Source: Eubacteriales bacterium
GTDB taxonomy: Bacteria; Bacillota; Clostridia; Oscillospirales; CAG-272
Direction of reading: 5' to 3'
Assembly (NCBI GenBank): GCA_045546615.1
Contig: JAZQDD010000013.1
Location: 2,879 to 66,878 of the forward strand
Length of the DNA stretch: 64,000 nt
Positions 12,054-41,009 of this stretch are shown in pieces. The notes beneath the pieces are model-generated. The model made no database searches and was not told where the DNA came from. It was given only the letters and a program-made list of their open reading frames with translations. Each line of letters opens with the position of its first letter. The stretch's first letter is position 1. Position numbers and translations under genes: made by a program.

Positions 12054-12095
12054 GATTGTGGTTTGTTATTTATTTCTTTAACGGAGGAAACAAAT

Positions 12096-13463: not shown

Positions 13464-13464
13464 T

Positions 13465-15396: not shown

Positions 15397-15413
15397 GAAA
15401 GGAAATACCGAAA

Positions 15414-16583
15414 ATGAATCGTGAAGATTATATAAAAGAAGCGGTTGCGCAGTTTGAAACAATACTGCGCGAACAGTCGGCAAGAGCCGAAAAAATGAAG
15501 AACGCTCCCCCCGCAACCGATTTTGCAAAGCTTGATAAGATCATCATCGGCTGCTGCGGAGGCGATGGAATTGGCCCGATAATTACTGCAGAGGCTCGCC
15601 GTGTGCTGGAGTTCCTTCTCAAGGATGCTATCGCATCGGGCAGAATCGAGCTTCGTGATATCGAGGGACTTACCATTGAAAACAGAATAGCCTGCGGAAA
15701 GGCTATTCCCGATGACGTTCTTGCGGCTCTCAAGGAGTGCAACGTCATCCTCAAGGGCCCGACTACCACTCCCAAGGGTGGCACGGGTGCAAAGGAGCTT
15801 GAAAGCGCAAACGTTGCAATGCGCCGCGAGCTTGACCTTTTTGCTAACATTCGTCCCGTATCAGTTCCCGAGCAGGGAATTGACTGGACCTTCTTCCGCG
15901 AGAATACCGAGGGCGAGTACGTTCTCGGAAGCCGCGGTGTTGAGATCCCCGACGAGCTTTGCTGTGACTTTAAGGTAACTACCGATGCGGGTACAGAGCG
16001 CATCTGCCGCGCCGCTTACGATTTTGCCGTTAAGAACGGAAAGACTCGCGTTGCTTGTGTCACCAAGGCTAATATTATGAAAAAGACCGACGGTAAGTTC
16101 TCCCGCATAGCTCACGCTATCGCGGATGCCGAGTATCCCTCCCTTACCGTTGAGGATTGGTACATCGACATTATGACCGCAAAGCTCGTTGACGAAAGAG
16201 GCCGCGCGGACTTCCAGGTATTCCTGCTTCCCAACCTTTACGGTGACATCATCACCGATGAGGCGGCACAGATCCAAGGCGGCGTAGGTACTGCGGGCAG
16301 CTCCAATGCAGGTTCGCACTATGCAATGTTTGAGGCTATCCACGGCTCTGCTCCCCGTATGATTGAGCGCGGAGACGGCGCGTATGCAAATCCCGCAAGT
16401 ATGCTTCGCGCAACCGAGATGCTTCTCCGTCATATCGGATATATAGCAGAAGCTAACAAGCTCTCTCGTGCGCTTGATATCTGCACTGCTCCCGATGCCG
16501 AGCTTAAGATCACGGGCAGAAGCGACGGCGCATCCTGCTCCGAGTTTGGCAATTGGCTGATGAGTGTTTGCGAAACTATTTAA
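15414..16583 (+). CDS. icd: isocitrate dehydrogenase (isocitrate/isopropylmalate dehydrogenase family)
   Basis: Family motifs LKGPTTTP, NLYGDIITDEAAQIQGGVG, FEAIHGSAP. Last gene of the citrate synthase-aconitase-IDH triad. Confidence 0.8.
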   Translation: MNREDYIKEAVAQFETILREQSARAEKMKNAPPATDFAKLDKIIIGCCGGDGIGPIITAEARRVLEFLLKDAIASGRIELRDIEGLTIENRIACGKAIPDDVLAALKECNVILKGPTTTPKGGTGAKELESANVAMRRELDLFANIRPVSVPEQGIDWTFFRENTEGEYVLGSRGVEIPDELCCDFKVTTDAGTERICRAAYDFAVKNGKTRVACVTKANIMKKTDGKFSRIAHAIADAEYPSLTVEDWYIDIMTAKLVDERGRADFQVFLLPNLYGDIITDEAAQIQGGVGTAGSSNAGSHYAMFEAIHGSAPRMIERGDGAYANPASMLRATEMLLRHIGYIAEANKLSRALDICTAPDAELKITGRSDGASCSEFGNWLMSVCETI

Positions 16584-16586
16584 TTA

Positions 16587-16636
16587 AAACAAACAAACCG
16601 TTGGGCTTTCGCCCAACGGTTTGTTTGTTCTTTTTA
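16587..16636. terminator. long bidirectional terminator between convergent icd and membrane-protein gene
   Basis: AAACAAACAAACCGTTGGGC-TTTC-GCCCAACGGTTTGTTTGTT, followed by CTTTTT. Confidence 0.8.
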
Positions 16637-26094: not shown

Positions 26095-27225
26095 TTATCT
26101 CTGCGGTTTGAAAAATTGATATAAGTACGCGGGTATAGTTCCGTTGTATAGCTTGCGAACCTTGTCGGCGCGTCTGCCGTAGAGCCTTTCAAAATATTCG
26201 CACGAGGTCAGCACGTATACCTGCCACGGCTCCATGGCGCGAAATGTTGTGCCCATATCGCGGTATAGCCGTTCCGCGTCGCGCATCGACATCATTCTCT
26301 CGCCGTATGGAGGATTGCAAATGAGCGTTCCTTTGCAATCGGGAGAAGGCTTTTTTATTTTGCGCATATCGCCGTGAGCAAGCTCTATGTGAGATGATAC
26401 TCCCGCGCGCCGTGCGTTTTCTCTTGCTACGGTTATGCAATCGGGATCAATGTCACTGCCGCGTGCGACGAAATGTGAGTTACTTACAATGGCGCACCGC
26501 GCTTCCTCTCTCGCGTTTTCCCAAAGCTCATTCGGCAGGAAACCAAAGCTCTCTCCTGCAAATGAGCGTTCAAGTCCGGGTGCGCGGCGTGTGGCGATCA
26601 TCGCTCCCTCTATCACTATTGTTCCCGAGCCGCAGCAGGGGTCCCAAAGCATAATGTCCTCGCGCACTCTTGCAGTCAACGCTATTGCCGCCGCGAGCGT
26701 TTCACGAAGCGGCGCGGCGTTCGCGACAGGTCGGTATCCGCGCTTGTGCAGCGCAATACCCGATGTATCTATCATAAGGTACGCCTCGTCCTTGAAAATG
26801 AAAAACTCAATTTTCATCACGGCATCAGTCTCGGGCAGGACGGAAAGACCGTATTTTTCGCCAAGCCGTGTTGCGATGGATTTTTTTAGTATCTTCTGAC
26901 AATCGGGAATGGAAGTCAGTTGGCTTTTTATCGAATGTCCCGATACGGGAAAAGCGTTGTCTTTTTCGATATAGTTCTCCCATGGTAAAGCTCGGCATCC
27001 TTCAAAAAGAGCATCAAAGCTTGGAGCGGGGAACGGATCTCCAACGAGAACGTAAACACGCTCCGCAACGCGCAGATTTACGTTTGCGCGCGCGCAATCT
27101 ATGGGTTCGCCCGAAAACAGCACTCTGCCGTCCATCGTCATTATTCTTTTGAGTCCGAGGGCGTCGATCTCCTCGCCAAGGAGCTTCTCAAGCCCAAACA
27201 TGCAGGTAGCTACGTAAGTCAACAT
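26095..27225 (-). CDS. THUMP-domain class I SAM-dependent RNA methyltransferase (UPF0020/RlmL-YpsC-like)
   Basis: N-terminal ferredoxin-like/THUMP region, DPCCGSGT SAM motif, catalytic NPPYG. Its ATG overlaps the upstream stop (TAATG). Confidence 0.85.
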   Translation of the reverse strand: MLTYVATCMFGLEKLLGEEIDALGLKRIMTMDGRVLFSGEPIDCARANVNLRVAERVYVLVGDPFPAPSFDALFEGCRALPWENYIEKDNAFPVSGHSIKSQLTSIPDCQKILKKSIATRLGEKYGLSVLPETDAVMKIEFFIFKDEAYLMIDTSGIALHKRGYRPVANAAPLRETLAAAIALTARVREDIMLWDPCCGSGTIVIEGAMIATRRAPGLERSFAGESFGFLPNELWENAREEARCAIVSNSHFVARGSDIDPDCITVARENARRAGVSSHIELAHGDMRKIKKPSPDCKGTLICNPPYGERMMSMRDAERLYRDMGTTFRAMEPWQVYVLTSCEYFERLYGRRADKVRKLYNGTIPAYLYQFFKPQR

Positions 27226-27422
27226 TATTTTTTATCCTTATAATAAAGCTTGCAGTGGCAGTAGCCCTCAAAATTCGGATCTGCAATCTGCTCTCTGAAT
27301 TCTTTGCATAGACATTTATTGTCCTCGGTCATCTCAAGGCGGCAGGGGCAATATCCGCCTCGTGCCTTGAGTCCTTCTTTAATTATTTTTACTATTTCTT
27401 TATCCTCGTTCAATCTTACCAT
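27225..27422 (-). CDS. minimal ferredoxin-thioredoxin-reductase catalytic-subunit-like protein
   Basis: 65 aa carrying the three CxC motifs of the FTR catalytic chain: CPCR, CLC, CHC. Its ATG overlaps the thioredoxin stop (TGATG); an alternative GTG lies at 27425. Confidence 0.65.
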   Translation of the reverse strand: MVRLNEDKEIVKIIKEGLKARGGYCPCRLEMTEDNKCLCKEFREQIADPNFEGYCHCKLYYKDKK

Positions 27423-27730
27423 CACAAAAACCTCTCTATGATCTCTTCTATTTCTTCTTTGCTAAGTACGCCCGTAGTACGATGTACCTCAACGCCGCCT
27501 TTGATGAAAAGAAGTGTAGGGATAAGGCTTATGCGGAATTTTATGGCAAGCGCACCTTCCTCGTCTACGTTGCATTTATATATATCAGCCGCCGATGATT
27601 CGGACAGCGCGTCTATAGTGGGGGCGAGCATTCTGCAAGGACCGCACCAAGGCGCCCAAAAATCTATTATGCATAGCTTGTCGCTTTTTTCTATTTGGTC
27701 AAATGTTGCACTTGTGATGTTTTTTGCCAT
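27422..27730 (-). CDS. trxA: thioredoxin
   Basis: FWAPWCGPCRMLAP active site. 102 aa. Confidence 0.9.
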   Translation of the reverse strand: MAKNITSATFDQIEKSDKLCIIDFWAPWCGPCRMLAPTIDALSESSAADIYKCNVDEEGALAIKFRISLIPTLLFIKGGVEVHRTTGVLSKEEIEEIIERFL

Positions 27731-27797: not shown

Positions 27798-27978
27798 TAG
27801 ACAAGAAATGTATTTTTTACTGTTTTTCTTGAAATATTTTCTAGCCGCAAATTAGGTAGTATTTTACCTAAAGGAAAATGAAAATCGCAAAAAACAGCTC
27901 TAATGCGATAGCTTTAGTCATTTTGACTAATTGAGCTTATGGTTTTTAGGAAAATTTATTTAATATTATTTGAAACGA

Positions 27979-27996
27979 TTGTTGAAATTTTAACAA
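27979..27996. promoter_or_regulatory. Rex-like operator (TTGTTGA-AATT-TTAACAA)
   Basis: 18-bp site, one mismatch from the clostridial Rex box TTGTTAA-N4-TTAACAA. It sits within a longer inverted repeat, ACGATTGTT (27975-27983) / AACAATCGT (27992-28000), and overlaps the -35 hexamer. Confidence 0.5.
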
Positions 27997-28010
27997 TCGT
28001 GTAGTATAAT
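27982..28010 (+). promoter_or_regulatory. promoter of the 13-gene yfcE-mdh-fumC-hdr-flx-frd-transporter operon
   Basis: TTGAAA 27982-27987, 17 nt, TATAAT 28005-28010. The ATG at 28059 is preceded by GGAGATG. Confidence 0.55.
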
Positions 28011-28058
28011 GTAATAGATAAATTTTATCATAATAAATTAATTTGCTGGAGATGCATT

Positions 28059-28625
28059 ATGAAGTGGCTTATCGCATCGGACATTCACGGTTCTGCATAT
28101 TGGTGTAAAAAGCTCGTTGAGGCGTACAAGCGCGAAGGGGCAGACAGATTGCTTTTGCTTGGCGACGTGCTGTATCACGGTCCACGCAACGATCTTCCGC
28201 GCGACTACGACCCCAAGGCTGTTATTTCAATGCTCAATCCCCTCGCATCGGAGATAGTCTGTGTCAGGGGCAATTGCGAGAGCGAGGTAGATGCCATGGT
28301 GCTTGATTTCCCCGTGCTTGCCGACTACGCCATCATCTGCGAGGAGGCATTGGGTAAAAATCTCATTTTTGCAACACACGGGCATCTTTTTAATGCATCA
28401 AAGCTCCCGCCGCTCAATCACGGAGACATTTTGATACACGGACACACACATGTGCCGTGCTTTGAACAAACCAACGGTATTACTATTCTCAATCCCGGAT
28501 CTGTGTCTATTCCCAAGGAGGGAAGTGAGCATAGTTACCTTGTGCTTAACGGCGCTGTTTTCACAAGACGCTCTCTTGATGGAGACATTTTGTCGGTACA
28601 CAGCTTTATTAAAACTAAAAAGTGA
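28059..28625 (+). CDS. YfcE-type metallophosphoesterase (MJ0936 family phosphodiesterase)
   Basis: Metallophosphatase motifs SDIHG, LLGDVLYHGPRN, GNCE, GHTH. First gene of the long operon. Confidence 0.8.
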   Translation: MKWLIASDIHGSAYWCKKLVEAYKREGADRLLLLGDVLYHGPRNDLPRDYDPKAVISMLNPLASEIVCVRGNCESEVDAMVLDFPVLADYAIICEEALGKNLIFATHGHLFNASKLPPLNHGDILIHGHTHVPCFEQTNGITILNPGSVSIPKEGSEHSYLVLNGAVFTRRSLDGDILSVHSFIKTKK

Positions 28626-28635
28626 GGTCTGATCG

Positions 28636-29580
28636 ATGAATAAGATCACCATAATCGGCACTGGCAACGTTGGCTCGACTATTGCCTACACAATAGCCCT
28701 TACGGGCATTGCGTCGGAGATAATTATGATAGACGTCAATCACGAAAAGGCACTCGGCGAGGCACTCGACATCAGACAGGGAACGCCCTTTTTGTCGTCC
28801 TGCTCTATCTACGCGGGAAACTATCGCGATGCCGCAGACTCAAGTATTGTTATTTTCACCTGCGGAGTGGCAAGAAAGCCGGGACAGACAAGGCTTGATC
28901 TTGCGCAGGTCAATGTAAATATCCTGAAGAGCATTATTCCGCAGATAACAAAATATGCTCCAAAGGCTAAATACCTTATCGTAAGCAATCCCGTTGACAT
29001 TCTTACCTACACCTTCTGCAAGCTATCCGACCTGCCAAACAGACGCATAATAGGTTCAGGAACTATCCTTGACACCTCCAGATTGCGCGCAAGGCTGTCG
29101 GAGTATTACTCCATAAACCAAAAAAACGTTCATGCATACGTTATGGGTGAGCATGGAGATTCAGCATTCATCCCGTGGTCACTCGCTAATATATCGAACG
29201 TCCCCATTCGCGAATGTCATAAATCCATCTCTATCGGCGGCGAGCTTGTTCCCGAGCCTAATTACGCGGAGATAGAGGATTACGTCAGAAAGTCGGGAGC
29301 GCGCGTCATCGAACGCAAGGGCGCAACGTTTTTTGCAGTTTCCGCGTCCGTTGTGCATCTTTGCAGATGCTTGCTCGGCGGAACTGACACGATCACTACC
29401 GTGTCGACCATGATGAACGGAGAGTACGGTATTGAGGACGTTTGCTTGAGCATACTGAACATCATCGGTTCTGCCGGTGCGCATTCAAAGATGTTAGCTC
29501 CGCTCAATTCAGAGGAGATAGGAAAGCTCCACAACAGTGCCGCCGTTCTTAAAGAAATTATTGCGGCACTTGAAATATAA
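28636..29580 (+). CDS. L-lactate/malate dehydrogenase family enzyme; Arg at the substrate-specificity position suggests malate dehydrogenase
   Basis: IIGTGNVGST Rossmann motif, catalytic GEHGDS. The loop GVARKPGQTRLDL has R (codon 28873-28875) where canonical LDH has Q102. Confidence 0.85.
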   Translation: MNKITIIGTGNVGSTIAYTIALTGIASEIIMIDVNHEKALGEALDIRQGTPFLSSCSIYAGNYRDAADSSIVIFTCGVARKPGQTRLDLAQVNVNILKSIIPQITKYAPKAKYLIVSNPVDILTYTFCKLSDLPNRRIIGSGTILDTSRLRARLSEYYSINQKNVHAYVMGEHGDSAFIPWSLANISNVPIRECHKSISIGGELVPEPNYAEIEDYVRKSGARVIERKGATFFAVSASVVHLCRCLLGGTDTITTVSTMMNGEYGIEDVCLSILNIIGSAGAHSKMLAPLNSEEIGKLHNSAAVLKEIIAALEI

Positions 29581-29606
29581 AATACAAAATTTTGGAGGTC
29601 AATATT

Positions 29607-30983
29607 ATGGAATACCGCATTGAACACGACTCTATGGGCGAAATGAAAGTTCCCGCCGACAAGCTTTGGGCGGCACAGACGCAGCGTAGCTGTGAGAATT
29701 TTCAGATAGGCGTGGGCATCGAAACGATGCCGCGAGAGATAGTCCATGCTTTTGGCATACTGAAAAAAGCCGCAGCACAGGCAAACCACGAGCTGAAGCC
29801 CGAAAAAATGACGGACGAAAAGCTCGCCGCCATCGAAAAGGCGTGCGACGAGGTCATTTCCGGTGAGCTCATTTCAAACTTCCCCCTCGTAGTATGGCAG
29901 ACCGGCTCGGGAACTCAATCCAATATGAACTCCAATGAGGTTATAGCCAACCGAGGCAATCAACTTGCCGGCAAGAAAATGCTCCATCCCAACGATGATA
30001 TAAATATGAGCCAATCCTCAAACGACACTTTCCCTACGGCAATGCACATTTCTGCCGTAATCGCCATAGAGGATAAGCTTATTCCCGCCGCAGAGACTCT
30101 CATCGCCACCTTCAAACGCCTTGAGGCGGAGAATGAGGGCGTTGTAAAGAGCGGACGTACGCATCTGCAGGATGCAACTCCCATCACCTTCCCGCAGGAG
30201 ATCTCCGGCTGGAGAAGCAGTATTGAGCGTGACGTTGAGCTGCTCAAACTTTCTCTCAAGCCTCTCAAGGAGCTTGCCCTCGGCGGCACTGCCGTAGGAA
30301 CGGGGCTTAACGCGCCTAAAGGTTTTGCAGAGCTTGTAGCAAGCAAGGTGTCCGCACTTACGGGTAAGGAGTTTGTTACTGCATCCAATAAATTCCATGC
30401 ACTCACCTCAAAGGACGAGATAGTTTTTGCACACGGCGCGATAAAGGCACTTGCGTGTGACCTTATGAAAATAGCAAATGACGTAAGATGGCTCGCATCA
30501 GGTCCTCGTGACGGTCTTGGCGAGATATTCATTCCCGAAAACGAGCCCGGCTCGTCCATTATGCCCGGTAAGGTCAACCCCACACAGTGTGAGGCGCTTA
30601 CCATGGTGGCAGTTCAGGTAATGGGCAATGACGTTGCCGTTGGTATGGCGGCATCGCAGGGTAATTTCGAGCTTAACGTATTTATGCCCGTATGTGCGTA
30701 TAATTTCCTGCAGTCCGCACGTCTGCTTGCTGAGGCTATCGTTTCCTTTGACAAGAACTGTGCATCGGGTATTAAGGCAAACCGCGAAAAGATGCACCAC
30801 AACCTGCACAATTCGCTTATGCTCGTCACCGCGCTTAACCCCTACATCGGATATGAGAACGCCGCAAAGACGGTGAAAAAAGCGTTCAAGGATAATATCT
30901 CTATCCGTCAGGCGTGTGTTGAACTCGGCTTTTTGACCGAGGAAAAATTCGACGAGGTATTCCATCCCGAAGAGATGGTATAA
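29607..30983 (+). CDS. fumC: class II fumarate hydratase
   Basis: ORF trimmed to MEYRIEHDSMGE (ATG 29607, GGAGG RBS). GSSIMPGKVNPTQCEA signature. TGSGTQSNMN. Confidence 0.95.
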   Translation: MEYRIEHDSMGEMKVPADKLWAAQTQRSCENFQIGVGIETMPREIVHAFGILKKAAAQANHELKPEKMTDEKLAAIEKACDEVISGELISNFPLVVWQTGSGTQSNMNSNEVIANRGNQLAGKKMLHPNDDINMSQSSNDTFPTAMHISAVIAIEDKLIPAAETLIATFKRLEAENEGVVKSGRTHLQDATPITFPQEISGWRSSIERDVELLKLSLKPLKELALGGTAVGTGLNAPKGFAELVASKVSALTGKEFVTASNKFHALTSKDEIVFAHGAIKALACDLMKIANDVRWLASGPRDGLGEIFIPENEPGSSIMPGKVNPTQCEALTMVAVQVMGNDVAVGMAASQGNFELNVFMPVCAYNFLQSARLLAEAIVSFDKNCASGIKANREKMHHNLHNSLMLVTALNPYIGYENAAKTVKKAFKDNISIRQACVELGFLTEEKFDEVFHPEEMV

Positions 30984-31004: not shown

Positions 31005-31814
31005 ATGAAGGTTAGCTATTTTCCGGGCTGTACCTTAAAAACAACGGCAAAAGAGCTTGACGTTTATACACGTGCCTCCGCTAAGGCACTTGGTGTCACG
31101 CTTGAGGAAATAGAAAATTGGCAATGCTGTGGCGGCGTGTTCACAACCGCCAATGACGAGATAGCAACAAAGCTGTCGTCCGTACGCGCACTCGTTGAGG
31201 CGAGAGATAAGGAGCAGGCGCTTGTCAGCGTTTGTTCCGCTTGCCATAACGTGATCAAGCAGACGAACCACGCAATGCAGACTGACGAGGGCTTTGCTTT
31301 GCGCGTAAACAATTATATGCGCATGCAGGATCCCGAGCATGCCGAATATCACGGCGAGACACGCGTTATGCATTTCCTTGAGCTGCTGCGCGATGAGGTA
31401 GGCTTTGACAAGGTCGCCGCCGCCGTTAAAAATTCGCTTAAGGGCAAAAAAATCGCCCCATATTACGGTTGCTTGCTTCTGCGCCCCGCCAAAACCATGC
31501 AAATGGATGACGTAGAGAATCCGAGAATAATCGAGGATCTTATACGCGCACTCGGCGCGGAGCCCGCCATTTACGCATACAGAAATGAATGTTGCGGCGG
31601 ATACGTTGCGCTTGATGATCCTGATGCTGCCGCGAAACAAAGCGGCAGAGTTCTTGAGGGGGCAAAGTCAGCGGGTGCAGATCTTATTGTGACCGCTTGC
31701 CCGCTTTGCCGATATAATCTTATAAAGAACGGTAAGAGCGATATTCCCGTAGTATATTTTACGGAGCTTCTTGCGGAGGCTCTCGGAGTTAAGGAGACAG
31801 AAAATGCGCAATAA
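31005..31814 (+). CDS. hdrB: HdrB-like subunit with two CCG cysteine-rich domains
   Basis: YFPGC...NWQCCGG...CSACHN and YYGC...NECCGG...CPLCRYN: two complete CCG motifs. Confidence 0.85.
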   Translation: MKVSYFPGCTLKTTAKELDVYTRASAKALGVTLEEIENWQCCGGVFTTANDEIATKLSSVRALVEARDKEQALVSVCSACHNVIKQTNHAMQTDEGFALRVNNYMRMQDPEHAEYHGETRVMHFLELLRDEVGFDKVAAAVKNSLKGKKIAPYYGCLLLRPAKTMQMDDVENPRIIEDLIRALGAEPAIYAYRNECCGGYVALDDPDAAAKQSGRVLEGAKSAGADLIVTACPLCRYNLIKNGKSDIPVVYFTELLAEALGVKETENAQ

Positions 31815-32193
31815 TGAAAACGTTACACAGCGCGTTCTCCGCATAAGCGGAGTCAACGCACGCCGTTGCATGAAATGCGGAAAATGCAGCGCAAGCTGTC
31901 CCTCGTACGATGAGATGGAGTATCATCCCCATCAGTTCGTATATATGATCGAAAGCGGAGATATAGAGCCTTTGTTGAATTCTACCTCTATCTATAAGTG
32001 CCTGACCTGCTTTGCGTGCGTGGATAGGTGTCCGCGCGGTGTTGAGCCTGCAAAGCTTGTTGAGGCGATAAGGCTTGAGGTCATAAGAGAGCAGGGAGCT
32101 AATCATCTGCGCGCGGATGATGTTCCCGCACTTGTCACGGACGGCGTACCTCAGCAGTTGCTGGTAAGCGCGTTCAGAAAATACGCGAAATAA
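31804..32193 (+). CDS. hdrC: HdrC-like 2x[4Fe-4S] ferredoxin subunit
   Basis: ORF trimmed to MRNNEN (ATG 31804, AAGGAGA RBS). CMKCGKCSASCP and CLTCFACVDRCP. 11-nt overlap with hdrB. Confidence 0.8.
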   Translation: MRNNENVTQRVLRISGVNARRCMKCGKCSASCPSYDEMEYHPHQFVYMIESGDIEPLLNSTSIYKCLTCFACVDRCPRGVEPAKLVEAIRLEVIREQGANHLRADDVPALVTDGVPQQLLVSAFRKYAK

Positions 32194-32210: not shown

Positions 32211-34202
32211 ATGCCAAGAATTGGAGTATTCGTATGCTGGTGCGGCACTAATATTGCGGGCACGGTTGACGTAGCCGCGGTTGCCGAGGCTGTTAAAAAT
32301 GAGCAAGGCGTGGTTTTCTCCACCGATTACCAATATATGTGCTCGCAATCGGGACAGGACATAATCAAAAATGCTATCAGAAAGTATGATCTTACGGGTA
32401 TAGTTGTATGCTCCTGCTCGCCCCGAATGCATGAGGCGACTTTCCGCAAGACAGCATCCGCGGCAGGACTCAATCCATATATGGTTGAGATAGCAAATAT
32501 CCGTGAGCAATGCTCGTGGGTACATAAGGATATGCTTACGGGAACGCAAAAGGCGATAGTTCTTGCAAAGGCGGCTATCGCAAAGGTCAATCTTAACGCG
32601 CCTCTCACCCCCGGAGAGAGTCCTGTGACCAAGCGCGCCCTCGTTATCGGCGGCGGAATTGCAGGAATTCAGACGGCGCTTGATATAGCCGATGCGGGAT
32701 TCCCCGTGGATATCGTGGAGACAAAACCCACTATCGGCGGAAAGATGGCACAGCTCGACAAGACCTTCCCCACACTTGACTGCGCCGCTTGTATCCTGAC
32801 GCCTAAGATGGTCGATGCATCGCAGCACGAAAAGATTAGGGTTTTTGCGTATAGCGAGATAGATGAGGTCAAAGGCTTTGTCGGAAACTTCGACGTTAAG
32901 ATAAGAAGAAAAGCAAGATACGTAAAGGAAGAGCTTTGCACAGGTTGCGGTCTTTGTACCGAAAAATGCCCGCAAAAGAAAGTTCCCAACGAATTTAACA
33001 TGGGCATGGATAACCGCCGTGCTATCTACATTCCGTTTGCACAGGCAGTGCCGAAGGTTGCAACCATCGACGCGGATTACTGCACGATGCTCAAAACGGG
33101 CAAGTGCGGCGTATGTTCAAAGGTCTGTTCTGTGGGTGCTATTGACTATAAGCAGAAGGATGAGATCATTACTGAACGTTACGGCGCGATAGTTGCCGCA
33201 ACGGGCTTTAATCCCATTAGTATGGATAAATTTGATGAGTATGCGTACAGTCAGTCAAAGGACGTTATTACCTCTCTTGAGTTTGAACGTCTGACCAACG
33301 CCGCAGGCCCTACCGCAGGTAAGCTTCTGCGTCCCTCGGATGGAAAGCATCCTCACACCATAGTTTTTGTACAATGCGTAGGCTCTCGTTGCGCCGCCGC
33401 CGAAAAGGGCAAGGAGTATTGTTCCAAGATCTGCTGTATGTATACCGCAAAGCACGCAATGCTCGTGCGCGATAAATATCCCGATACCGAGGTGTATGTT
33501 TTCTATATCGATGTTCGTACCCCCGGCAAGAATTTCGACGAATTCTACCGCAGAGCCGTTGAGGAATATGGCGTACATTATATTAAAGGAATGGTGGGCA
33601 AGGTATCACCCGAGGGTGATGTACTAAAGGTTCAGGCGTCTGACCTTATTGCAAACAAGCAGCTTCATATTGATGCCGATCTCGTTGTACTTGCCGCCGC
33701 CATTGAGCCTGATAAGTCAGCAAGAAGCCTCGCTACGATGCTTACCGCATCTATGGACACGAACGATTTCTTTACCGAAGCTCACCCGAAGCTCCGTCCC
33801 GTGGAAAGCCCCACGGCAGGTGTATTTTTGTCGGGAGCGTGCCAAGGACCGAAGGATATTCCGGAAACGGTCTCGCAGGCGGGTGCCGCCGCTTCAAAGG
33901 TCATTGGACTTCTTGCCAAGGATAAGCTTATCGGTAACCCCTGCATTTCTCATTCCGATGAGATGATGTGTAACGGCTGTTCCTCTTGCGAGAGGGTGTG
34001 CCCATACGGTGCTATTACTTACGTTAACAAGGAATTCAGAATGCCCGACAGAACAACGCTCGTCCGCCGTGTCGCATCTGTCAACGAGGCAGTATGTCAG
34101 GGCTGTGGCGCTTGTACTGTGGCTTGTCCGTCGGGCGCTATGGATCTTCGCGGATTTACCGCACAGCAAATTATGTCGGAGGTGGATGCAATATGCAAGT
34201 AA
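32211..34202 (+). CDS. hdrA: HdrA-like FAD- and Fe-S-containing subunit
   Basis: 663 aa. FAD fold ALVIGGGIAGIQTALDIADAG. Ferredoxin motifs CTGCGLCTEKCP, CGVCSKVCS, CNGCSSCERVCP, CQGCGACTVACP. N-terminal CWCGTN...CSCSPR domain. Confidence 0.9.
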   Translation: MPRIGVFVCWCGTNIAGTVDVAAVAEAVKNEQGVVFSTDYQYMCSQSGQDIIKNAIRKYDLTGIVVCSCSPRMHEATFRKTASAAGLNPYMVEIANIREQCSWVHKDMLTGTQKAIVLAKAAIAKVNLNAPLTPGESPVTKRALVIGGGIAGIQTALDIADAGFPVDIVETKPTIGGKMAQLDKTFPTLDCAACILTPKMVDASQHEKIRVFAYSEIDEVKGFVGNFDVKIRRKARYVKEELCTGCGLCTEKCPQKKVPNEFNMGMDNRRAIYIPFAQAVPKVATIDADYCTMLKTGKCGVCSKVCSVGAIDYKQKDEIITERYGAIVAATGFNPISMDKFDEYAYSQSKDVITSLEFERLTNAAGPTAGKLLRPSDGKHPHTIVFVQCVGSRCAAAEKGKEYCSKICCMYTAKHAMLVRDKYPDTEVYVFYIDVRTPGKNFDEFYRRAVEEYGVHYIKGMVGKVSPEGDVLKVQASDLIANKQLHIDADLVVLAAAIEPDKSARSLATMLTASMDTNDFFTEAHPKLRPVESPTAGVFLSGACQGPKDIPETVSQAGAAASKVIGLLAKDKLIGNPCISHSDEMMCNGCSSCERVCPYGAITYVNKEFRMPDRTTLVRRVASVNEAVCQGCGACTVACPSGAMDLRGFTAQQIMSEVDAICK

Positions 34203-34627
34203 GTGAATACAAGCCCCTCATCGTTGCATTTTGTTGCAATTGGTGCTCCTATGCGGGCGCCGATCTTGCGGGTAACAACCGACTCAACTACCCCGCGGAG
34301 GTAAAGATCATCCGCGTGCCCTGCTCGTGCAGAGTTAATCCATCGTTTGTACTTCGTGCATTCCAGCGCGGAGCAGACGGCGTTATCATCTGCGGCTGTC
34401 ACCCCGGCGACTGCCACTATACCTCGGGTAACTATTATACCCGCCGCAGAATGGCGATGCTTTTCTCAATGCTTGAGTATCTCGGCATCGAGAAGGAGCG
34501 TACGCGCGTAGAATGGGTGTCTGCCGCGGAAGGGGCAAAATTTGCCGCCACAATGAATGATTTTGTCGAGACTGTGGCTTCTCTTGGCGAGAATAAAAGA
34601 TTGGAGGACCTCAGATGCAAGCGATAA
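34193..34627 (+). CDS. mvhD: MvhD/FlxD-like (methyl-viologen-reducing hydrogenase delta subunit family) protein
   Basis: ORF trimmed to MQVSEYKP (ATG 34193, GGAGGTGGA RBS). AFCCNWCSYAGADLAG...VPCSCRV...CGCHPGDCHY. 10-nt overlap with hdrA. Confidence 0.85.
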   Translation: MQVSEYKPLIVAFCCNWCSYAGADLAGNNRLNYPAEVKIIRVPCSCRVNPSFVLRAFQRGADGVIICGCHPGDCHYTSGNYYTRRRMAMLFSMLEYLGIEKERTRVEWVSAAEGAKFAATMNDFVETVASLGENKRLEDLRCKR

Positions 34628-35520
34628 GCAGTAAAACCCTCGTGGATATAGCCGCAAAAAAACTCGCGGACGGTGAGGTATCTGCCGTCCTCGGTTGGAA
34701 AAAAGGACTTTTCAATTACGATGTGACTCCTGCCGTGTTTACTAATGCGGATGAGCTTGCAGATGGCTTTGTTTATACCGATTTTTGTGCGGCAAATCTT
34801 TCAAAATATCTTGTAAATGAAACTAAAAAGCCGGAATATCGCTCCGACGATAGAAAAATTCTCGTTTTCTTGAAGCCTTGCGATACATATAGTTTTAACC
34901 AGCTTCTCACCGAGCATCGAATTCACAGAGACCGCGTTTGCGTTGTTGCAGTACCGTGCAACGGTATGATAGACCTCACGGGCGCACCGTATGAAAAATG
35001 CGTGAACTGCAAGAGTAAAAAGGCTGTTGTCTATGACGAGCTTGTGGGCGAAAACGGCGACGTTATCGACTCCAATCGTTTTGACGAGGTCGAACGCATT
35101 GAGGCTATGTCGTCTGATGAAAAATTTGAGTTTTGGCAGAACGAGCTTTCCCGTTGCATCAGGTGCAATGCCTGCCGCAACGTATGCCCCGCCTGCACAT
35201 GCGAAAAATGTGTTTTTGACAATCCCGCGTCGGGACTTGAAAACAAAGCGATATCGGACAGCTTTGAAGAAAAAATGTTCCACATCATCCGCGCGTTTCA
35301 CGTTGCGGGCAGATGCACGGACTGTGGTGAATGCTCAAGAGTGTGCCCACAGCACATTCCGCTTCACCTGCTTAACAGAAAGCTCATTAAGGATATGAAT
35401 GAGGCTTACGGCGAATATCAGGCAGGTGCTGTGGAGGGTAGCCGTGCGCCCCTCGTTGATTATTCCGTAAACGACATAGAGCCTGCAGAGGCTGTCGGAA
35501 AGGGAGGCAACAATGCGTAA
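34615..35520 (+). CDS. Fe-S protein, AsrA/HydB/FlxC-like (2x[4Fe-4S])
   Basis: CIRCNACRNVCPACTC and CTDCGECSRVCP. N-terminal FLKPCDTYSFNQLL region. 13-nt overlap with the upstream gene. GGAGGA RBS. Confidence 0.7.
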   Translation: MQAISSKTLVDIAAKKLADGEVSAVLGWKKGLFNYDVTPAVFTNADELADGFVYTDFCAANLSKYLVNETKKPEYRSDDRKILVFLKPCDTYSFNQLLTEHRIHRDRVCVVAVPCNGMIDLTGAPYEKCVNCKSKKAVVYDELVGENGDVIDSNRFDEVERIEAMSSDEKFEFWQNELSRCIRCNACRNVCPACTCEKCVFDNPASGLENKAISDSFEEKMFHIIRAFHVAGRCTDCGECSRVCPQHIPLHLLNRKLIKDMNEAYGEYQAGAVEGSRAPLVDYSVNDIEPAEAVGKGGNNA

Positions 35521-36538
35521 ATGTAACATAAATAAAATAGAGGAATTGTTTGCCGCCATTTCCGAAAAGGCAAGTCTTTACGTTCCCGTAGATACTGCAA
35601 AAACGGGCGCAAAATTTAAAAAATGGCAAAAGGGTGTTGAGCTTTCAAAGGCTCTTAACACCGCAAACAGCGTAAAGGATTTCTTCTTCCCGCAAAGCGA
35701 GAGCATTGTGGATTTTAAAATGGAAGGAAAAAATATCGAGGTAATCGATATTCGCAGCGAGAGCGAGGACTTTGTGCTTTTCGGTGTTCGCGCGTGTGAC
35801 GTCAAGAGCTTTGATATTCTTGACCGCGTTTTTCTTGCTGATACACCTGACAGCTATTATGCAAACCGCCGCGAGCATTGTACCGTCATTTCGCTCGCTT
35901 GCGCCAACCCCGGATACACCTGCTTTTGCTCGACGTTCGGCATAGATGCCGCAGAGCCCGGAGCGGATATTTCGGCATGGATGTGCGTTGATGCTTTGTA
36001 TCTGCAGGCGAATACAGAAAAGGGAAGTGCGCTCCTTGCGCGTGTTTCGGATGTCACCGAGGATGCGGACCCTGCCGCTGTTGAAGGCATGAAGGCTGTT
36101 ATCAGAGAGAAGATATCAAAACTTCCTTTGTCTGACCTCAAAGCCGATGCCTTTGGCGCTGACAAAACCAAAAAGTTTTTTGACTCTCCCGAATGGAAGT
36201 CGCTTTCCGAGTCCTGCCTTGGTTGCGGAACGTGTACCTTCGTTTGCCCCACTTGTCAATGCTATGACATAAAGGATTTTGATACGGGACATGGTATTAA
36301 GCGTTTCCGTTGCTGGGATTCTTGTATGTATTCGGATTTTACGAAGATGGCACACGGAAATCCCAGACTTACTCAAGTAGAGCGCTTCCGTCAGCGATTT
36401 ATGCATAAGCTCGTGTATTTCCCGAGCAACCACGACGGTATGTTCAGTTGCGTAGGATGCGGCAGATGTATTTCAAGCTGTCCTGTGTCGATGAACATCG
36501 TAAAAGTAATGAAATCACTTGGAGGTAAGGAAGAATGA
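35513..36538 (+). CDS. Fe-S protein, anaerobic-sulfite-reductase-subunit-A / sulfhydrogenase-beta / FlxB-like
   Basis: FGVRACDVKSF, CLGCGTCTFVCPTCQC, CVGCGRCISSCP. 8-nt overlap with the upstream gene. Confidence 0.7.
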   Translation: MRKCNINKIEELFAAISEKASLYVPVDTAKTGAKFKKWQKGVELSKALNTANSVKDFFFPQSESIVDFKMEGKNIEVIDIRSESEDFVLFGVRACDVKSFDILDRVFLADTPDSYYANRREHCTVISLACANPGYTCFCSTFGIDAAEPGADISAWMCVDALYLQANTEKGSALLARVSDVTEDADPAAVEGMKAVIREKISKLPLSDLKADAFGADKTKKFFDSPEWKSLSESCLGCGTCTFVCPTCQCYDIKDFDTGHGIKRFRCWDSCMYSDFTKMAHGNPRLTQVERFRQRFMHKLVYFPSNHDGMFSCVGCGRCISSCPVSMNIVKVMKSLGGKEE

Positions 36539-37368
36539 ACACAAGACAGGAAATGCTTATCCCAAGCGTAGGAGTCGTTACGGACGTAAGAATAGACACG
36601 CCCGACGTTAAGACCTTTCGTGTCGTAAATACAGACGGTAAAAAGCATTTTGAGCATATGCCGGGACAATGCGCTATGCTTTCCATCCCCGGCGTGGGTG
36701 AGGCTATGTTTTCGATCACGTCCTCACCGACAAATACCGAATTTATGGAATTTTCCATCAAAAAATGCGGTTGCCTTACCGAATGGCTTCATAGGCTCGA
36801 CGTCGGTCAGCAGATAACCATTCGCGGACCGTACGGCAACGCCTTCCCCGTAGACACGGAGTTTGTCGGCAAGGATCTGCTGTTTATCGCGGGCGGTATA
36901 GGACTTGCTCCTTTGCGCTCTGTTATAAATTACACACGCCACTACCGCGACAGATACGGAAAGATAGACATCGTATACGGTGCGCGCTCCAAGGAAGATC
37001 TCGTTGACTATAAGGAGATCGTAGGCGAATGGTGCGGAGACAGCGGTATTAATGTCCACCTCACGATCGATAATCCCCATGACGATTGGGATGGACACGT
37101 TGGATTTGTTCCGAATTACGTCAAGGAGCTTAATTTTTCCACAGATAAGACCGTTATTCTCTGCGGTCCGCCAATAATGATAAAATTTACGCTTGCGGGG
37201 CTTCTTGAGCAGGGCTTTGATAAAACGAGCGTATATACCACTCTTGAGCTTCGTATGAAGTGCGGCATCGGAAAATGCGGAAGATGCAACGTCGGCTCAA
37301 AATACGTCTGCAAGGACGGACCTGTTTTCCGTTTCGACGAAATTGACGAGCTTCCCGACGAGTATTGA
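36535..37368 (+). CDS. FAD/NAD(P)-binding oxidoreductase with C-terminal [2Fe-2S] (AsrB/PyrK/HydG/FlxA-like)
   Basis: FNR-like fold: MFSITSSP (FAD), LLFIAGGIGLAPL (NAD(P)). C-terminal CGIGKCGRCNVG cluster. ATGA overlap with the upstream gene. Confidence 0.8.
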   Translation: MNTRQEMLIPSVGVVTDVRIDTPDVKTFRVVNTDGKKHFEHMPGQCAMLSIPGVGEAMFSITSSPTNTEFMEFSIKKCGCLTEWLHRLDVGQQITIRGPYGNAFPVDTEFVGKDLLFIAGGIGLAPLRSVINYTRHYRDRYGKIDIVYGARSKEDLVDYKEIVGEWCGDSGINVHLTIDNPHDDWDGHVGFVPNYVKELNFSTDKTVILCGPPIMIKFTLAGLLEQGFDKTSVYTTLELRMKCGIGKCGRCNVGSKYVCKDGPVFRFDEIDELPDEY

Positions 37369-37385
37369 TAAAAGGAGAAACTCTT

Positions 37386-38060
37386 ATGCAAGAGACAGTA
37401 AGTATATATCTATTTGGAAAGAAATATGACGTTCCGTCCGACCTTACCATTATGTGTGCTATGGAGTATGCGGGATATCAGCTTGTGAGAGGCTGCGGAT
37501 GCCGTAACGGCTTTTGCGGCGCTTGTGCAACAATATACCGTATAAAGGGCGACAGAGACCTTAAGGTTTGTCTTGCCTGCAAAACGCAGGTAAAGGACGG
37601 TATGTATATCGCAACTCTGCCTTTCTTCCCGCTGGTAAAGCAGGTATACGATATAGAAAAGGTAAGCCCCACCGAGCAGATAATGATGCAGCTCTATCCC
37701 GAAATATACGCCTGCATTGGATGCAACGCCTGCACCAAGGCGTGCGCGCAAAAGCTCAACGTTATGCAGTATATAGCATACGCCCAGCGCGGTGAGTATG
37801 AAAAATGCGCCGAGGAGTCCTTTGACTGTGTTATGTGCGGTATTTGTTCATCTCGCTGTCCCGCAGGCATCTCCCATCCGCAGGTTGCGATGCTTGCTCG
37901 CAGACTTAACGGTAAGTATCTTGCGCCCGAATCCAAGCATCTCAAGAATAGGGTTATGGAGATAAAGGACGGCACTTTCGAGGAGCTTCTTGAATCTCTT
38001 ATGCAAAAGCCCATCGAGGAGATGAAAGAGCTTTACAATAACCGCGAGATAGAAAAGTAA
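37386..38060 (+). CDS. succinate dehydrogenase/fumarate reductase iron-sulfur subunit-like protein
   Basis: ORF trimmed to MQETVSIY (ATG 37386, AAGGAGA RBS). N-terminal 2Fe-2S CGCRNGFCGACATIY...C. CIGCNACTKAC and CVMCGICSSRCP clusters. Confidence 0.75.
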   Translation: MQETVSIYLFGKKYDVPSDLTIMCAMEYAGYQLVRGCGCRNGFCGACATIYRIKGDRDLKVCLACKTQVKDGMYIATLPFFPLVKQVYDIEKVSPTEQIMMQLYPEIYACIGCNACTKACAQKLNVMQYIAYAQRGEYEKCAEESFDCVMCGICSSRCPAGISHPQVAMLARRLNGKYLAPESKHLKNRVMEIKDGTFEELLESLMQKPIEEMKELYNNREIEK

Positions 38061-38073
38061 GGAGGTAGCGACA

Positions 38074-39669
38074 ATGTATTCCGAAAAATTTACAGCATCC
38101 ATTGCGGCAGTCGAGGCGGCACGCGAGGCAAATATAGCCTACGAGCCTGCCCGAATGAGCGCCAAGGAAAAGGAAGAGCTTCTTGCCGCATACCACCCAG
38201 ACTATAAAAAGAGTGAGTTCGTTGCGCTCAAAGTTGGCGCAAATAAGGGTGACATAGTTCCTCACGAGCTCGCAGAGACGCTTCAGGCGAATAGTCGTAT
38301 AAAGGCAGATGACGTGGATCTCGCTTCTCCCGCGTACGACGTTGACGTTCTCGTCATCGGCGGCGGCGGCGCGGGTACTTCTGCTGCTATCGAGGCGCAC
38401 AGAGCAGGAGCGAATACTATGATAGTAACCAAGCTCCGCATGGGCGATGCCAACACAATGATGGCAGAGGGCGGTATCCAAGCGGCTGATAAGCCCAACG
38501 ACTCGCCCGCGATTCATTATCTTGATGCTTTTGGCGGCGGACATTTTGCCGCAAAGCCCGAGCTTCTTTATAAGCTTGTAAACGATGCTCCCGAGTCGCT
38601 TTTGTGGCTCAATGAGCTTGGCGTTGAATTTGATAAGACCGAGGATGGTACGATGATCACCACCCACGGCGGCGGAACTTCAAGAAAGCGTATGCATGCG
38701 GCAAAGGACTACACGGGTGCGGAGATAATGCGCACGCTCCGCGACGAGGTGCTTAATAGCGGCATCACCGTTGTGGATTTTACGTCAGCCGTTGAGCTTA
38801 TTCTTGACGATGCAGGCAACGCCGCAGGCGCGGTTCTTATGAATATGGAAACGGGCGAGCTTATGGTGGCTCGCGCAAAGACCGTTATTATAGCAACGGG
38901 CGGCGCGGGAAGAATGCATTATCAAGGCTTCCCGACCTCTAACCACTACGGCGCTACCGCGGACGGACTTGTGCTTGGATATCGTGTAGGAGCAAAGCTC
39001 CTTTATGCGGACACCCTGCAGTATCACCCCACGGGTGCGGCGTACCCTTCGCAGATCTTTGGTGCGCTCGTTACCGAAAAGGTGCGTTCTCTCGGCGCGA
39101 AGCTTGTCAACGCGGACGGCAAGGTATTCATGCATCCGCTTGAAACTCGCGACGTAGCCGCCGCCTCCATCATTCGCGAATGCTCCGACAGGAAAAACGG
39201 AGTTGATACGGGAAACGGCACGGCTGTATGGCTTGACACACCCATGATCGAGAAGATAGGCGGAGAGGGAACTATCGAAAAGCGAATCCCTGCCATGATG
39301 CGTATGTTTGGCGAGTACGGCATTGATATTCGCAAAGAGCCTATACTCGTATATCCCACGCTTCATTATCAGAACGGCGGACTTGATATCAACGCTGACG
39401 GAATGACCACGGCGGTGAAGAATCTTTACGTTGCGGGTGAGGCTGTCGGCGGTATTCACGGCAGAAACCGTCTTATGGGTAACTCGCTTCTCGACATCAT
39501 CGTTTTCGGTAGAAGCGCAGGTAAGAATGCGGCAGCCAAGAGCCGCGAGGTGAATGTTGGCAAGCTCACCCTTGACCACATCGATGCATTTGCCAAGGAG
39601 TGCAAGGAGGCAGGCATCGTTACCGATGAGGTATCTCCCAAGCTCCTGCCCGACTACAGGCGCAAATAA
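38074..39669 (+). CDS. fumarate reductase/succinate dehydrogenase flavoprotein-family subunit (soluble type)
   Basis: DVLVIGGGGAGTSAAIEA dinucleotide fold, MAEGGIQAA, LQYHPTG, PTLHYQNGGL, VAGEAVGGIHGRNRLMGNSL. About 95-aa N-terminal extension. Confidence 0.8.
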   Translation: MYSEKFTASIAAVEAAREANIAYEPARMSAKEKEELLAAYHPDYKKSEFVALKVGANKGDIVPHELAETLQANSRIKADDVDLASPAYDVDVLVIGGGGAGTSAAIEAHRAGANTMIVTKLRMGDANTMMAEGGIQAADKPNDSPAIHYLDAFGGGHFAAKPELLYKLVNDAPESLLWLNELGVEFDKTEDGTMITTHGGGTSRKRMHAAKDYTGAEIMRTLRDEVLNSGITVVDFTSAVELILDDAGNAAGAVLMNMETGELMVARAKTVIIATGGAGRMHYQGFPTSNHYGATADGLVLGYRVGAKLLYADTLQYHPTGAAYPSQIFGALVTEKVRSLGAKLVNADGKVFMHPLETRDVAAASIIRECSDRKNGVDTGNGTAVWLDTPMIEKIGGEGTIEKRIPAMMRMFGEYGIDIRKEPILVYPTLHYQNGGLDINADGMTTAVKNLYVAGEAVGGIHGRNRLMGNSLLDIIVFGRSAGKNAAAKSREVNVGKLTLDHIDAFAKECKEAGIVTDEVSPKLLPDYRRK

Positions 39670-39683
39670 GGAGAATTTAGACA

Positions 39684-40904
39684 ATGAATCTTTTTGACGG
39701 ACTTGTTTCAATAAACGGAGTGACGTTCCTTTTGTTTTGTGTAATGGCTATTGCAGCCGTAGGCTATGCCCTCGGCAGAATAACCATAAAGGGCGTGTCG
39801 CTCGGCACTGCGGGAGTATTTATCGTGGCGCTCCTCTTCGGATGCTTTTTCCACGATGAGCTTTCCGCCCAGCTCGTGACTTCGGGCGCAAATTATACGG
39901 GCAGCGCACTTAAAATAGTTGAGTCTTTGGGACTTATCCTTTTTGTGACCGCAGTTGGATTTATCGCAGGCCCGAAATTCTTTGGAAATATGAAAAAGAA
40001 TTTCAAATCCTACGTTCTTCTCGGCCTCATTATCATAATCGCAGGTGGACTTGCCGCTATCGGTTGTATATACGTCGGAAGAATGATAGGCGGTGTTGGA
40101 AACGATTATCTGACCGCTATGATCGTCGGTCTGCTTTCAGGCTCGCTGACGTCAACCCCCGCATTTTCCGCGGCAAAGGATACCGTAGCCGCAGACCTCC
40201 AAAGTGTGGTTTCGGTAGGACACGGTATTGCCTACATCTTTGGCGTTATCGGAGTTGTACTTTTCGTTCAGCTTATGCCGAAGCTCACACGCGCCAACAT
40301 GGATGAAGAAAGAAAAAAACTCACTCAAGTTTCTGACGGAGAAGAAAAGAAGTATAGCGGAAAGCTCATAGAAATGGATCCGTTCGGATTTATGGTATTC
40401 GCGCTTGCCGCCGTTCTCGGTGTTTTTGTTGGAGCTATCAAGGTTCCCGGAACAACGTTTTCGCTTACCACTACCGGCGGATGCCTTCTCGTAGCGCTCA
40501 TTCTCGGACATTTCGGCAGAATCGGTAAAATAAGCCTTATGCCCAAGGAAACTACGCTCAAGGTTTTCCGTGAGCTTGGACTTATGCTGTTCCTTATAGG
40601 CGCAGGTATTGACGGTGGAGCGGAATTCGTTGCAAACTTTGACGTAATGTATTTTGTTTACGGCGTGTTTATGACCATAGTTCCGATGATCATCGGTTAT
40701 ATTTTTGCGAGATACGTGCTGAAGCTCAGCTTACTCAACAATCTCGGTTCTATCACGGGCGGAATGACGTCTACTCCCGCGCTTGGTACGCTTATTAACG
40801 TAGCCGGAACAGAGGATGTAGCATCCGCGTATGCGGCGACGTATCCCATCGCTCTTATATCCGTGGTACTCGTATCACAATTTTTAATAATTTTCTTCTC
40901 ATAA
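39684..40904 (+). CDS. AAE-family (aspartate:alanine exchanger / YidE-YbjL-SucE-like) transporter without TrkA-C domains
   Basis: Two internal repeats ending in GLLSGSLTSTPAF and SITGGMTSTPALG. N-terminal GRITIKGVSLGTAGVFIVALLFG. 406 aa. Confidence 0.75.
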   Translation: MNLFDGLVSINGVTFLLFCVMAIAAVGYALGRITIKGVSLGTAGVFIVALLFGCFFHDELSAQLVTSGANYTGSALKIVESLGLILFVTAVGFIAGPKFFGNMKKNFKSYVLLGLIIIIAGGLAAIGCIYVGRMIGGVGNDYLTAMIVGLLSGSLTSTPAFSAAKDTVAADLQSVVSVGHGIAYIFGVIGVVLFVQLMPKLTRANMDEERKKLTQVSDGEEKKYSGKLIEMDPFGFMVFALAAVLGVFVGAIKVPGTTFSLTTTGGCLLVALILGHFGRIGKISLMPKETTLKVFRELGLMLFLIGAGIDGGAEFVANFDVMYFVYGVFMTIVPMIIGYIFARYVLKLSLLNNLGSITGGMTSTPALGTLINVAGTEDVASAYAATYPIALISVVLVSQFLIIFFS

Positions 40905-40980: not shown

Positions 40981-41009
40981 TTGACAAACTACCAAAAATA
41001 TGTTAATAT
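40981..41009 (+). promoter_or_regulatory. promoter of amino acid ABC transporter operon
   Basis: TTGACA 40981-40986, 17 nt, TAATAT 41004-41009 with upstream TG. Confidence 0.55.

Follow-up and report, generated by a model that had tools for sequence, protein, structure and literature searches.

A predicted Rex-type operator at the promoter of a Flx-Hdr-linked fumarate-reduction operon in Clostridia

What controls the transcription of a fumarate-reduction operon found in a 64-kb stretch of DNA from an Eubacteriales bacterium (contig JAZQDD010000013.1; the whole stretch is referred to here as the window)? The 13 genes of this operon, which we also call the succinate operon, are tightly packed on the plus strand behind a promoter that carries a palindromic box, TTGTTGAAATTTTAACAA, at 27979–27996, and an earlier note made from the sequence alone had read this box as an operator of the repressor Rex. 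We consider that reading likely: the box would be the operator for a Rex-family, NADH/NAD+-sensing repressor acting by promoter occlusion. Its support comes from the enrichment of the box at orthologous operons and from the linkage of rex to the operon in 10 species.

The box and the operon promoter

The box differs from the clostridial Rex consensus TTGTTAA-N4-TTAACAA at one position (position 6, where it has G and the consensus A) and from the general Rex form TTGTGAA-N4-TTCACAA at three; the sequence bears out both the coordinates and the single mismatch given in the earlier note. The clostridial consensus on which that note relied is documented: it is given as TTGTTAANNNNTTAACAA and attributed to Ravcheev 2012 in PMC8457756 and PMC9600882, and the motif obtained by DNA affinity purification sequencing (DAP-seq) for Rex_2471 of Clostridium thermocellum matches it and was confirmed by electrophoretic mobility shift assay (EMSA) (PMC8457756). 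Within the window, the 20-bp form ATTGTTA-N6-TAACAAT, allowing at most one mismatch, has a single match where 0.01 would be expected, and the chance expectation for the 18-bp form at up to two mismatches is 0.37. This 20-bp form is reportedly the RSP box that Pei and colleagues described in 2011 for Thermoanaerobacter ethanolicus. Scored with a position weight matrix built from 18 sites of other species, TTGTTGAAATTTTAACAA ranked first of the ~64,000 18-mers in the window with 23.4 bits, against 13.2 bits for the runner-up at 41000, a scoring which is partly circular at 14 specified positions because the 18 sites were themselves picked by consensus similarity. Their symmetrised consensus is TTGTTAAAATTTTAACAA, from which the window site differs at position 6 only. 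At the other promoters and genes of the window, including gdh and a cluster of citrate-synthase-like, aconitase and Icd genes, we found no credible Rex-like site.

The box, which has no strand, had been placed by the earlier note inside a 9-bp inverted repeat. A repeat search confirmed the two arms, ACGATTGTT (27975–27983) and AACAATCGT (27992–28000), around a gAAATTTt centre, giving a strandless 26-bp palindrome (ACGATTGTTgAAATTTtAACAATCGT, 27975–28000) with 12 of 13 half-positions symmetric; its outer 4 bp on each side, however, are not conserved in one of the two closest relatives. These relatives, the loci L001 (95–98% amino acid identity) and L002 (~90%), form a clade with the window, and the box is invariant in both amid diverging flanks. 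The outer arms read ATGA/TCAT in L001, which is still symmetric, and ATGT/TCGT in L002, which is not, and the L002 intergenic region as a whole has diverged save for a 41-bp island which runs from the first T of the box through the -10. As the outer 4 bp (ACGA/TCGT in the window) drift in L002, the constrained unit appears to be the 18–20-bp box together with the promoter and not the full 26-bp palindrome, the outer bases of which are probably not functional.

The promoter is of the sigma-70 type and lies on the plus strand at 27982–28010, with a TTGAAA -35 hexamer at 27982–27987, a 17-nt spacer and a TATAAT -10 hexamer at 28005–28010. It is the top promoter-like match between 27300 and 28700 (score 11/12), and its overlap with the box and the distance of 49 nt from the end of the -10 to the first ATG of the operon, at 28059, are both as the earlier note had described. 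A ribosome-binding site, GGAG, can be read on the plus strand at 28048–28051, 7 nt before that ATG. The G at position 6 of the box also supplies the TTG of the -35 hexamer. With transcription predicted to start near 28017, the box would reach from about -38 to -21 and thus take in both the -35 hexamer and one half of the spacer; a dimer bound there would keep RNA polymerase off the promoter.

We infer that the source genome encodes a Rex protein which would bind this box and be relieved from it by NADH. At low NADH/NAD+ a Rex dimer would sit on the box, over the -35 hexamer and half of the spacer; as NADH accumulates, Rex would leave the DNA and the operon would be transcribed, and its products would re-oxidise NADH via oxaloacetate and malate to succinate.

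Two other kinds of element were considered for the palindrome and rejected. An RNA element or terminator was set aside because a Rfam scan of the box and promoter region gave no family match and transcription is predicted to start only downstream of the palindrome, and a FNR/CRP-type or TnrA-type site was dismissed on half-site sequence and spacing, by inspection alone. A third half-site-like sequence, AAATTTTATCA, lies at 28020–28030, ~30 nt downstream of the box and around the predicted start, and is complementary to TGTTGAAATTT of the box; it is kept in L001 and not in L002, and is therefore probably not significant. The same intergenic region is shared with a divergent, redox-related pair of genes on its other side (27225–27730, minus strand), a thioredoxin gene followed by a short open-reading frame weakly similar to the catalytic chain of ferredoxin:thioredoxin reductase; the promoter of the thioredoxin gene (27797–27769, minus strand) is ~190 bp from the box.

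Conservation of the box and linkage of rex

An HdrB-like protein scan with one genome per GTDB species yielded 80 loci, taken with ~10 kb either side of the operon (1.29 Mb in total), all of which belong to uncultured Clostridia of the gut or rumen (Oscillospiraceae, Acutalibacteraceae, 'Ca. Fimenecus' and unclassified Eubacteriales). Nearly all of these loci keep the 12-gene core of the operon, which extends from mdh to the permease gene, and 70 or more have it in the same order. Upstream regions of 300 nt were available for 69 loci, and the box was present with at most one mismatch in 12 of them, against 0.063 expected from dinucleotide shuffles of the same regions (maximum 2 in 300 shuffles), and with at most two mismatches in 20, against 1.0 expected. 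Across the whole 1.29 Mb there were 14 matches with at most one mismatch, 13 of which lay directly upstream of the succinate operon, and a perfect box, TTGTTAAATATTTAACAA, precedes the operon in L074. When two mismatches were allowed, at least 22 of the 26 non-coding matches preceded the operon or, where hydrogenase genes are fused to its front, those genes. The register of the box varies among species, which place it over the -35, over the -10 or 20–40 nt downstream of a -10; this varied position relative to promoter-like hexamers argues for a protein-binding site rather than a by-product of the promoter.

Rex homologues, detected by tblastn, adjoin the operon in 10 of the 80 loci, a synteny which ties Rex to the operon independently of the motif. 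The rex gene directly precedes mdh/fumC, with the same orientation, in L076, L037, L050, L045 and L069, and lies downstream of the permease in L006 and L011, whilst in L058, L052 and L055 it lies ~5 kb upstream and heads a cluster of rex, 2Fe-2S, HydS, PP2C and HydA genes that abuts mdh. The operon-linked proteins are true members of the Rex family: they score 224–262 bits with the NCBIfam model NF003994 (cutoff 130), and their closest solved structure is the T. ethanolicus Rex 3WG9 (E = 5e-32). Their recognition helix, QVRKDL, is the classical one, and the wing reads SGxGKPRxGY instead of FGxFGxxGxGY. The Rex proteins of Thermoanaerobacter and Clostridium, which bind TTGTTAA-type boxes, belong to NF003990 (362–375 bits). 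Such boxes are said, in work by Ravcheev from 2012 and Zhang from 2014, to correlate with a helix in which Gln replaces Lys (IRQD); the operon-linked Rex proteins carry RKD there. Homologues of the T. ethanolicus RSP came up only in Thermoanaerobacter, Peptostreptococcaceae and similar relatives, a result which is uninformative on the gut lineage.

ATCGAT repeats and the choice of regulator

Besides the partly circular matrix scoring, several findings speak against a Rex operator and have to be set beside this support. No rex gene was found in the window by tblastn with a Bacillus subtilis Rex query. The Rex proteins that are linked to the operon belong to NF003994 and not to the NF003990 group, and where rex adjoins the operon the canonical box is missing, its place being taken by ATCGATA-N7-TATCGAT, 60–110 nt upstream of rex; phased ATCGAT repeats dominate the promoters of these rex genes. 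In around two-thirds of the orthologous operons no box can be recognised within 300 nt; some of these operons are fused behind hydrogenase or rex genes. Finally, position 6 is A in all 18 sites from other species and G in the window, and one half-site of the window box may therefore be weakened.

The ATCGAT element was followed through both sets of loci that carry rex. In the operon loci it stands upstream of rex in L037 (7840–7875), L045 (6814–6834), L050 (6825–6845), L055 (2064–2099), L058 (2047–2082), L069 (6875–6895) and L076 (6774–6794), and upstream of mdh in L056 (7486–7506), L067 (2739–2759) and L070 (3514–3534); the hexamers are phased ~13–16 bp apart, and no phased pair in these loci lies anywhere but in front of rex or mdh. 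The 10 linked Rex proteins were aligned and the alignment used to scan metagenomes, which added 80 further loci (L081–L160, 567 kb). Within this 567 kb there was no canonical box with at most one mismatch, and the ATCGAT element, again with at most one mismatch, lay 50–130 nt upstream of rex in ~35 loci, where it is frequently doubled or tripled with a phase of 15 bp. Over the 200 nt that precede rex, ATCGAT reached a density of 7.1 per kb, compared with 0.21 per kb elsewhere (33-fold), and 42 of the 44 phased pairs were within 220 nt upstream of rex, the other two being just downstream of it. Six canonical-like boxes (at most two mismatches) were found in the same DNA, all less than 100 nt upstream of rex and overlapping its -10 (L081, L084/86/87, L136 and L160), and their restriction to rex promoters fits autoregulation. 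We found no description of the ATCGAT element in the literature searched. The outer ACGA/TCGT arms of the window palindrome were considered as part of such an element and rejected, being unconserved in L001 and L002 and wrongly spaced.

In a tree of HdrA, box-bearing and rex-linked loci are interleaved, with L046 sister to L045 and L050, and L074 sister to L055; homology between the rex promoter of L045 and L050 and the mdh promoter of L046 is plain to see. This implies that the two elements substitute for each other at one promoter within a single lineage. The ATCGAT array may serve the NF003994 Rex subfamily, or else a partner regulator, as its operator, and on our reading both it and the canonical box would belong to a Rex-centred circuit. 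We put forward, tentatively and with some doubt, a larger scheme in which two Rex-linked cis-elements would control one succinate operon in related gut Oscillospirales: the ATCGAT array would be the operator of NF003994, a Rex lineage with changed DNA specificity, and the window promoter would represent one state in an evolutionary exchange of one redox regulator for another.

Two further observations concern the rex loci themselves. In L084–L087, L112, L128, L129, L136, L145 and others, ~40–60 nt upstream of rex, the -35 position, with the ATCGAT repeats on one side and a TGnTAAAAT-type -10 on the other, is taken by a conserved sequence, AATTCCCAA, which might be a non-canonical -35 or a further binding site. 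In many relatives (L055 2154–7610; L058, L052, L091, L094, L095, L113, L129, L143, L145–L147 and others) the operon lies directly behind a cluster of rex, 2Fe-2S, HydS-like, PP2C and [FeFe]-hydrogenase genes, and such an arrangement unites the sensing of H2 and of NADH with fumarate reduction in a single supercluster.

Who would read the box in the window is the point at which these data allow different answers. An NF003994-type (hydS-linked) Rex paralogue, in place of an NF003990-type protein, would be a sub-variant of the Rex operator with the same mechanism; it is the sole Rex type seen in the related loci, the canonical-like boxes at the -10 of its own gene and the classical recognition helix suit it, but operon copies beside such rex genes have ATCGAT repeats where the canonical box would be expected, and RKD in the helix, where proteins that read TTGTTAA-type boxes are said to have IRQD, also speaks against it; we regard this paralogue as a possible, not a favoured, reader. 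A regulator outside the Rex family which recognises the TTGTTA-N6-TAACAA palindrome, for example a dedicated regulator of the succinate operon encoded elsewhere, would account for the confinement of strong boxes in the 1.29 Mb to this operon and its supercluster, as a local regulator would give, and for the lack of rex in the window, and the ATCGAT repeats that mainly accompany the operon-linked Rex subfamily could be counted in its favour. The sampled DNA reaches only ~10 kb either side of the operon, however, so the absence of other targets says little, and neither the window nor the box-bearing loci have a conserved transcription factor gene beside the operon. Moreover, the motif is exactly the validated clostridial Rex box, with its spacing and A/T-rich centre (PMC8457756), box-like elements also occur on rex promoters, and the logic of the regulon fits Rex; we think a non-Rex regulator unlikely.

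That there is no operator at all, and that an A/T-rich core promoter, conserved for its promoter function, has given rise to the palindrome incidentally, seems to us very improbable. The box does overlap the -35 and the spacer, and promoter function alone could explain the 41-bp island in L001 and L002; several 'boxes' with three mismatches elsewhere are indeed TTGAxx -35 hexamers with A/T-rich spacers. Boxes with no or one mismatch, however, keep both half-sites at differing promoter positions across species, their enrichment is ~190-fold over dinucleotide shuffles of the same A/T-rich regions, and the other promoters of the window offer no comparable match. A Rex operator remains our preferred reading of the box.

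The operon and its published counterparts

The earlier note had named the downstream genes a fumarate-reduction operon, and the label stands: the genes lead from malate through fumarate to succinate and include an NAD(P)H-binding Flx-Hdr module, although the first gene is one for a YfcE-type metallophosphoesterase/phosphodiesterase (28059–28625; NF006988, 216 bits, cutoff 117). All 13 genes are on the plus strand. The second encodes a lactate dehydrogenase (LDH)-like malate dehydrogenase (28636–29580), which clears the NCBIfam L-LDH equivalog TIGR01771 with 325 bits (cutoff 303.55). Its specificity loop, GVARKPGQTR, aligns with ANRKPGETR of its closest solved structure, 1Y6J from C. thermocellum, as opposed to AAQKPGETR in true LDH, and the Arg in this loop, also present in 1Y6J, marks it as a malate dehydrogenase despite its passing the L-LDH model; automatic annotation would probably mislabel it as LDH. 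It is followed by the class II fumarate hydratase FumC (29592–30983; Lyase_1, 357 bits, and FumaraseC_C) and by HdrB-like (31005–31814, with CCG domains), HdrC-like (~31771–32193) and HdrA-like (32211–34202; HdrA2 model, 790 bits) genes, the start coordinates of which are mechanical. The Flx-like module, assigned with Pfam and NCBIfam, consists of MvhD/FlxD (34094–34627), a 4Fe-4S protein (34615–35520), a Fer4_22 protein (35513–36538) and a FAD/NAD(P)H-binding FlxA-like subunit (36535–37368). A fumarate reductase pair comes next, made up of a 2Fe-2S/4Fe-4S protein (37365–38060) and a TfrA/FrdA-like flavoprotein (38074–39669), for which the best model is the thiol:fumarate reductase TfrA at 337 bits, under the equivalog cutoff. 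The final gene encodes a permease of the AspT/YidE/YbjL family (39684–40904), a putative succinate exporter.

Only in the window, L001, L002 and L056 does the operon begin with the gene for the YfcE-type phosphodiesterase. In other lineages (L112, L113, L118, L129, L130, L143 and L151) a gene of this type immediately precedes rex, ~710–720 nt upstream of it. Adjoining rex there and the operon here, it is a conserved neighbour of the regulatory region, whatever follows.

The closest published counterpart of the operon is the 'succinate operon' of Pseudoclostridium thermosuccinogenes (PMC7282089; Koendjbiharie & van Kranenburg 2019 preprint), which consists of a fumarate hydratase gene, a seven-gene Flx-Hdr set, two fumarate reductase genes and a putative transporter gene (PMC7282089). 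The window has the same content in the same order, namely fumarase, seven Hdr/Flx genes, two fumarate reductase genes and then a transporter, and the gene-for-gene match makes 'fumarate-reduction operon' a fair label; on sequence grounds, the window cluster is a homologue of this proposed NADH-dependent, possibly electron-bifurcating operon. It differs in opening with mdh and, in its own clade, also with the phosphodiesterase gene. Flx-Hdr/fumarate reductase has been proposed to couple NADH oxidation to the reduction of fumarate and ferredoxin (PMC7282089), and by analogy the window enzymes may carry out the NADH-oxidising (bifurcating) fumarate reduction proposed in the literature, the enzymology of the reductase in the window operon being presumably alike. 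The P. thermosuccinogenes operon is induced ~4-fold under redox surplus (PMC7282089), the behaviour expected of a Rex target, and no regulator has been proposed for it. If our reading of the box is right, it would offer a regulatory explanation for this induction, and the widespread Flx-Hdr-linked fumarate reductase operon of gut and rumen Oscillospirales would be under NADH/NAD+ control, giving a testable rule: these bacteria would make succinate under redox surplus. For annotation, the combination of the box with rex synteny would be a useful marker of the succinate operon.

Rex control of a fumarate reductase gene has been shown experimentally in Streptococcus mutans, where Rex binds the frdC (SMU.1410) promoter, and expression is derepressed 3.5-fold in a rex mutant (PMC3441419). 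The window resembles this case in its predicted Rex-family site at a fumarate reductase promoter; it differs in that frdC is a single gene for a soluble flavoprotein, behind a TTGTGAA-type box in a lactic-acid bacterium, whereas the window encodes a multi-subunit, Flx-Hdr-linked enzyme.

The cluster that precedes the operon in many of our relatives, such as L055, is exactly the rex-hydS-PP2C-hydA2 cluster of Ruminococcus albus, for which a role in H2 sensing was proposed (Zheng et al. 2014, cited in PMC5707799 and PMC10084766). Unlike that cluster, the window has no rex or hyd genes beside the operon and carries the Rex-type box only. Published in silico work on Rex in Caproicibacterium, a related chain-elongating bacterium, used the same motif as we did. 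Its acn-icd operon, a predicted Rex target, ends in rex; the counterpart in the window (12063–16583) comprises an HMGL-like (citrate-synthase-type) gene, aconitase and isocitrate dehydrogenase, is followed by a strong terminator-like hairpin at ~16590–16625, and has neither a rex behind it nor a Rex box in front.

No paper linking Rex to the Flx-Hdr succinate operon was found in the accessible literature, and the operon is absent from the accessible published Rex regulons, a difference from the known clostridial operators, as is the G at position 6 in one half-site of the window box, which doubles as part of the -35. The likenesses are extensive: the window box shares with clostridial Rex operators the half-sites, the spacing, the A/T-rich centre and the 18–20-bp palindrome, it likewise lies on or next to the core promoter, and its target is an NADH-consuming fermentative pathway. 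The targets of C. thermocellum Rex include the lactate/malate dehydrogenase gene, malic enzyme and Fe-only hydrogenases (PMC8457756), the first of these being the orthologue of the LDH-like malate dehydrogenase gene downstream of the window box. What is new is a predicted Rex operator at a target outside the accessible regulons, conserved across many uncultured gut species, with the ATCGAT element as the more novel lead. Were the prediction right, it would leave the known mechanism of Rex unchanged and add a well-conserved target to the clostridial Rex regulons.

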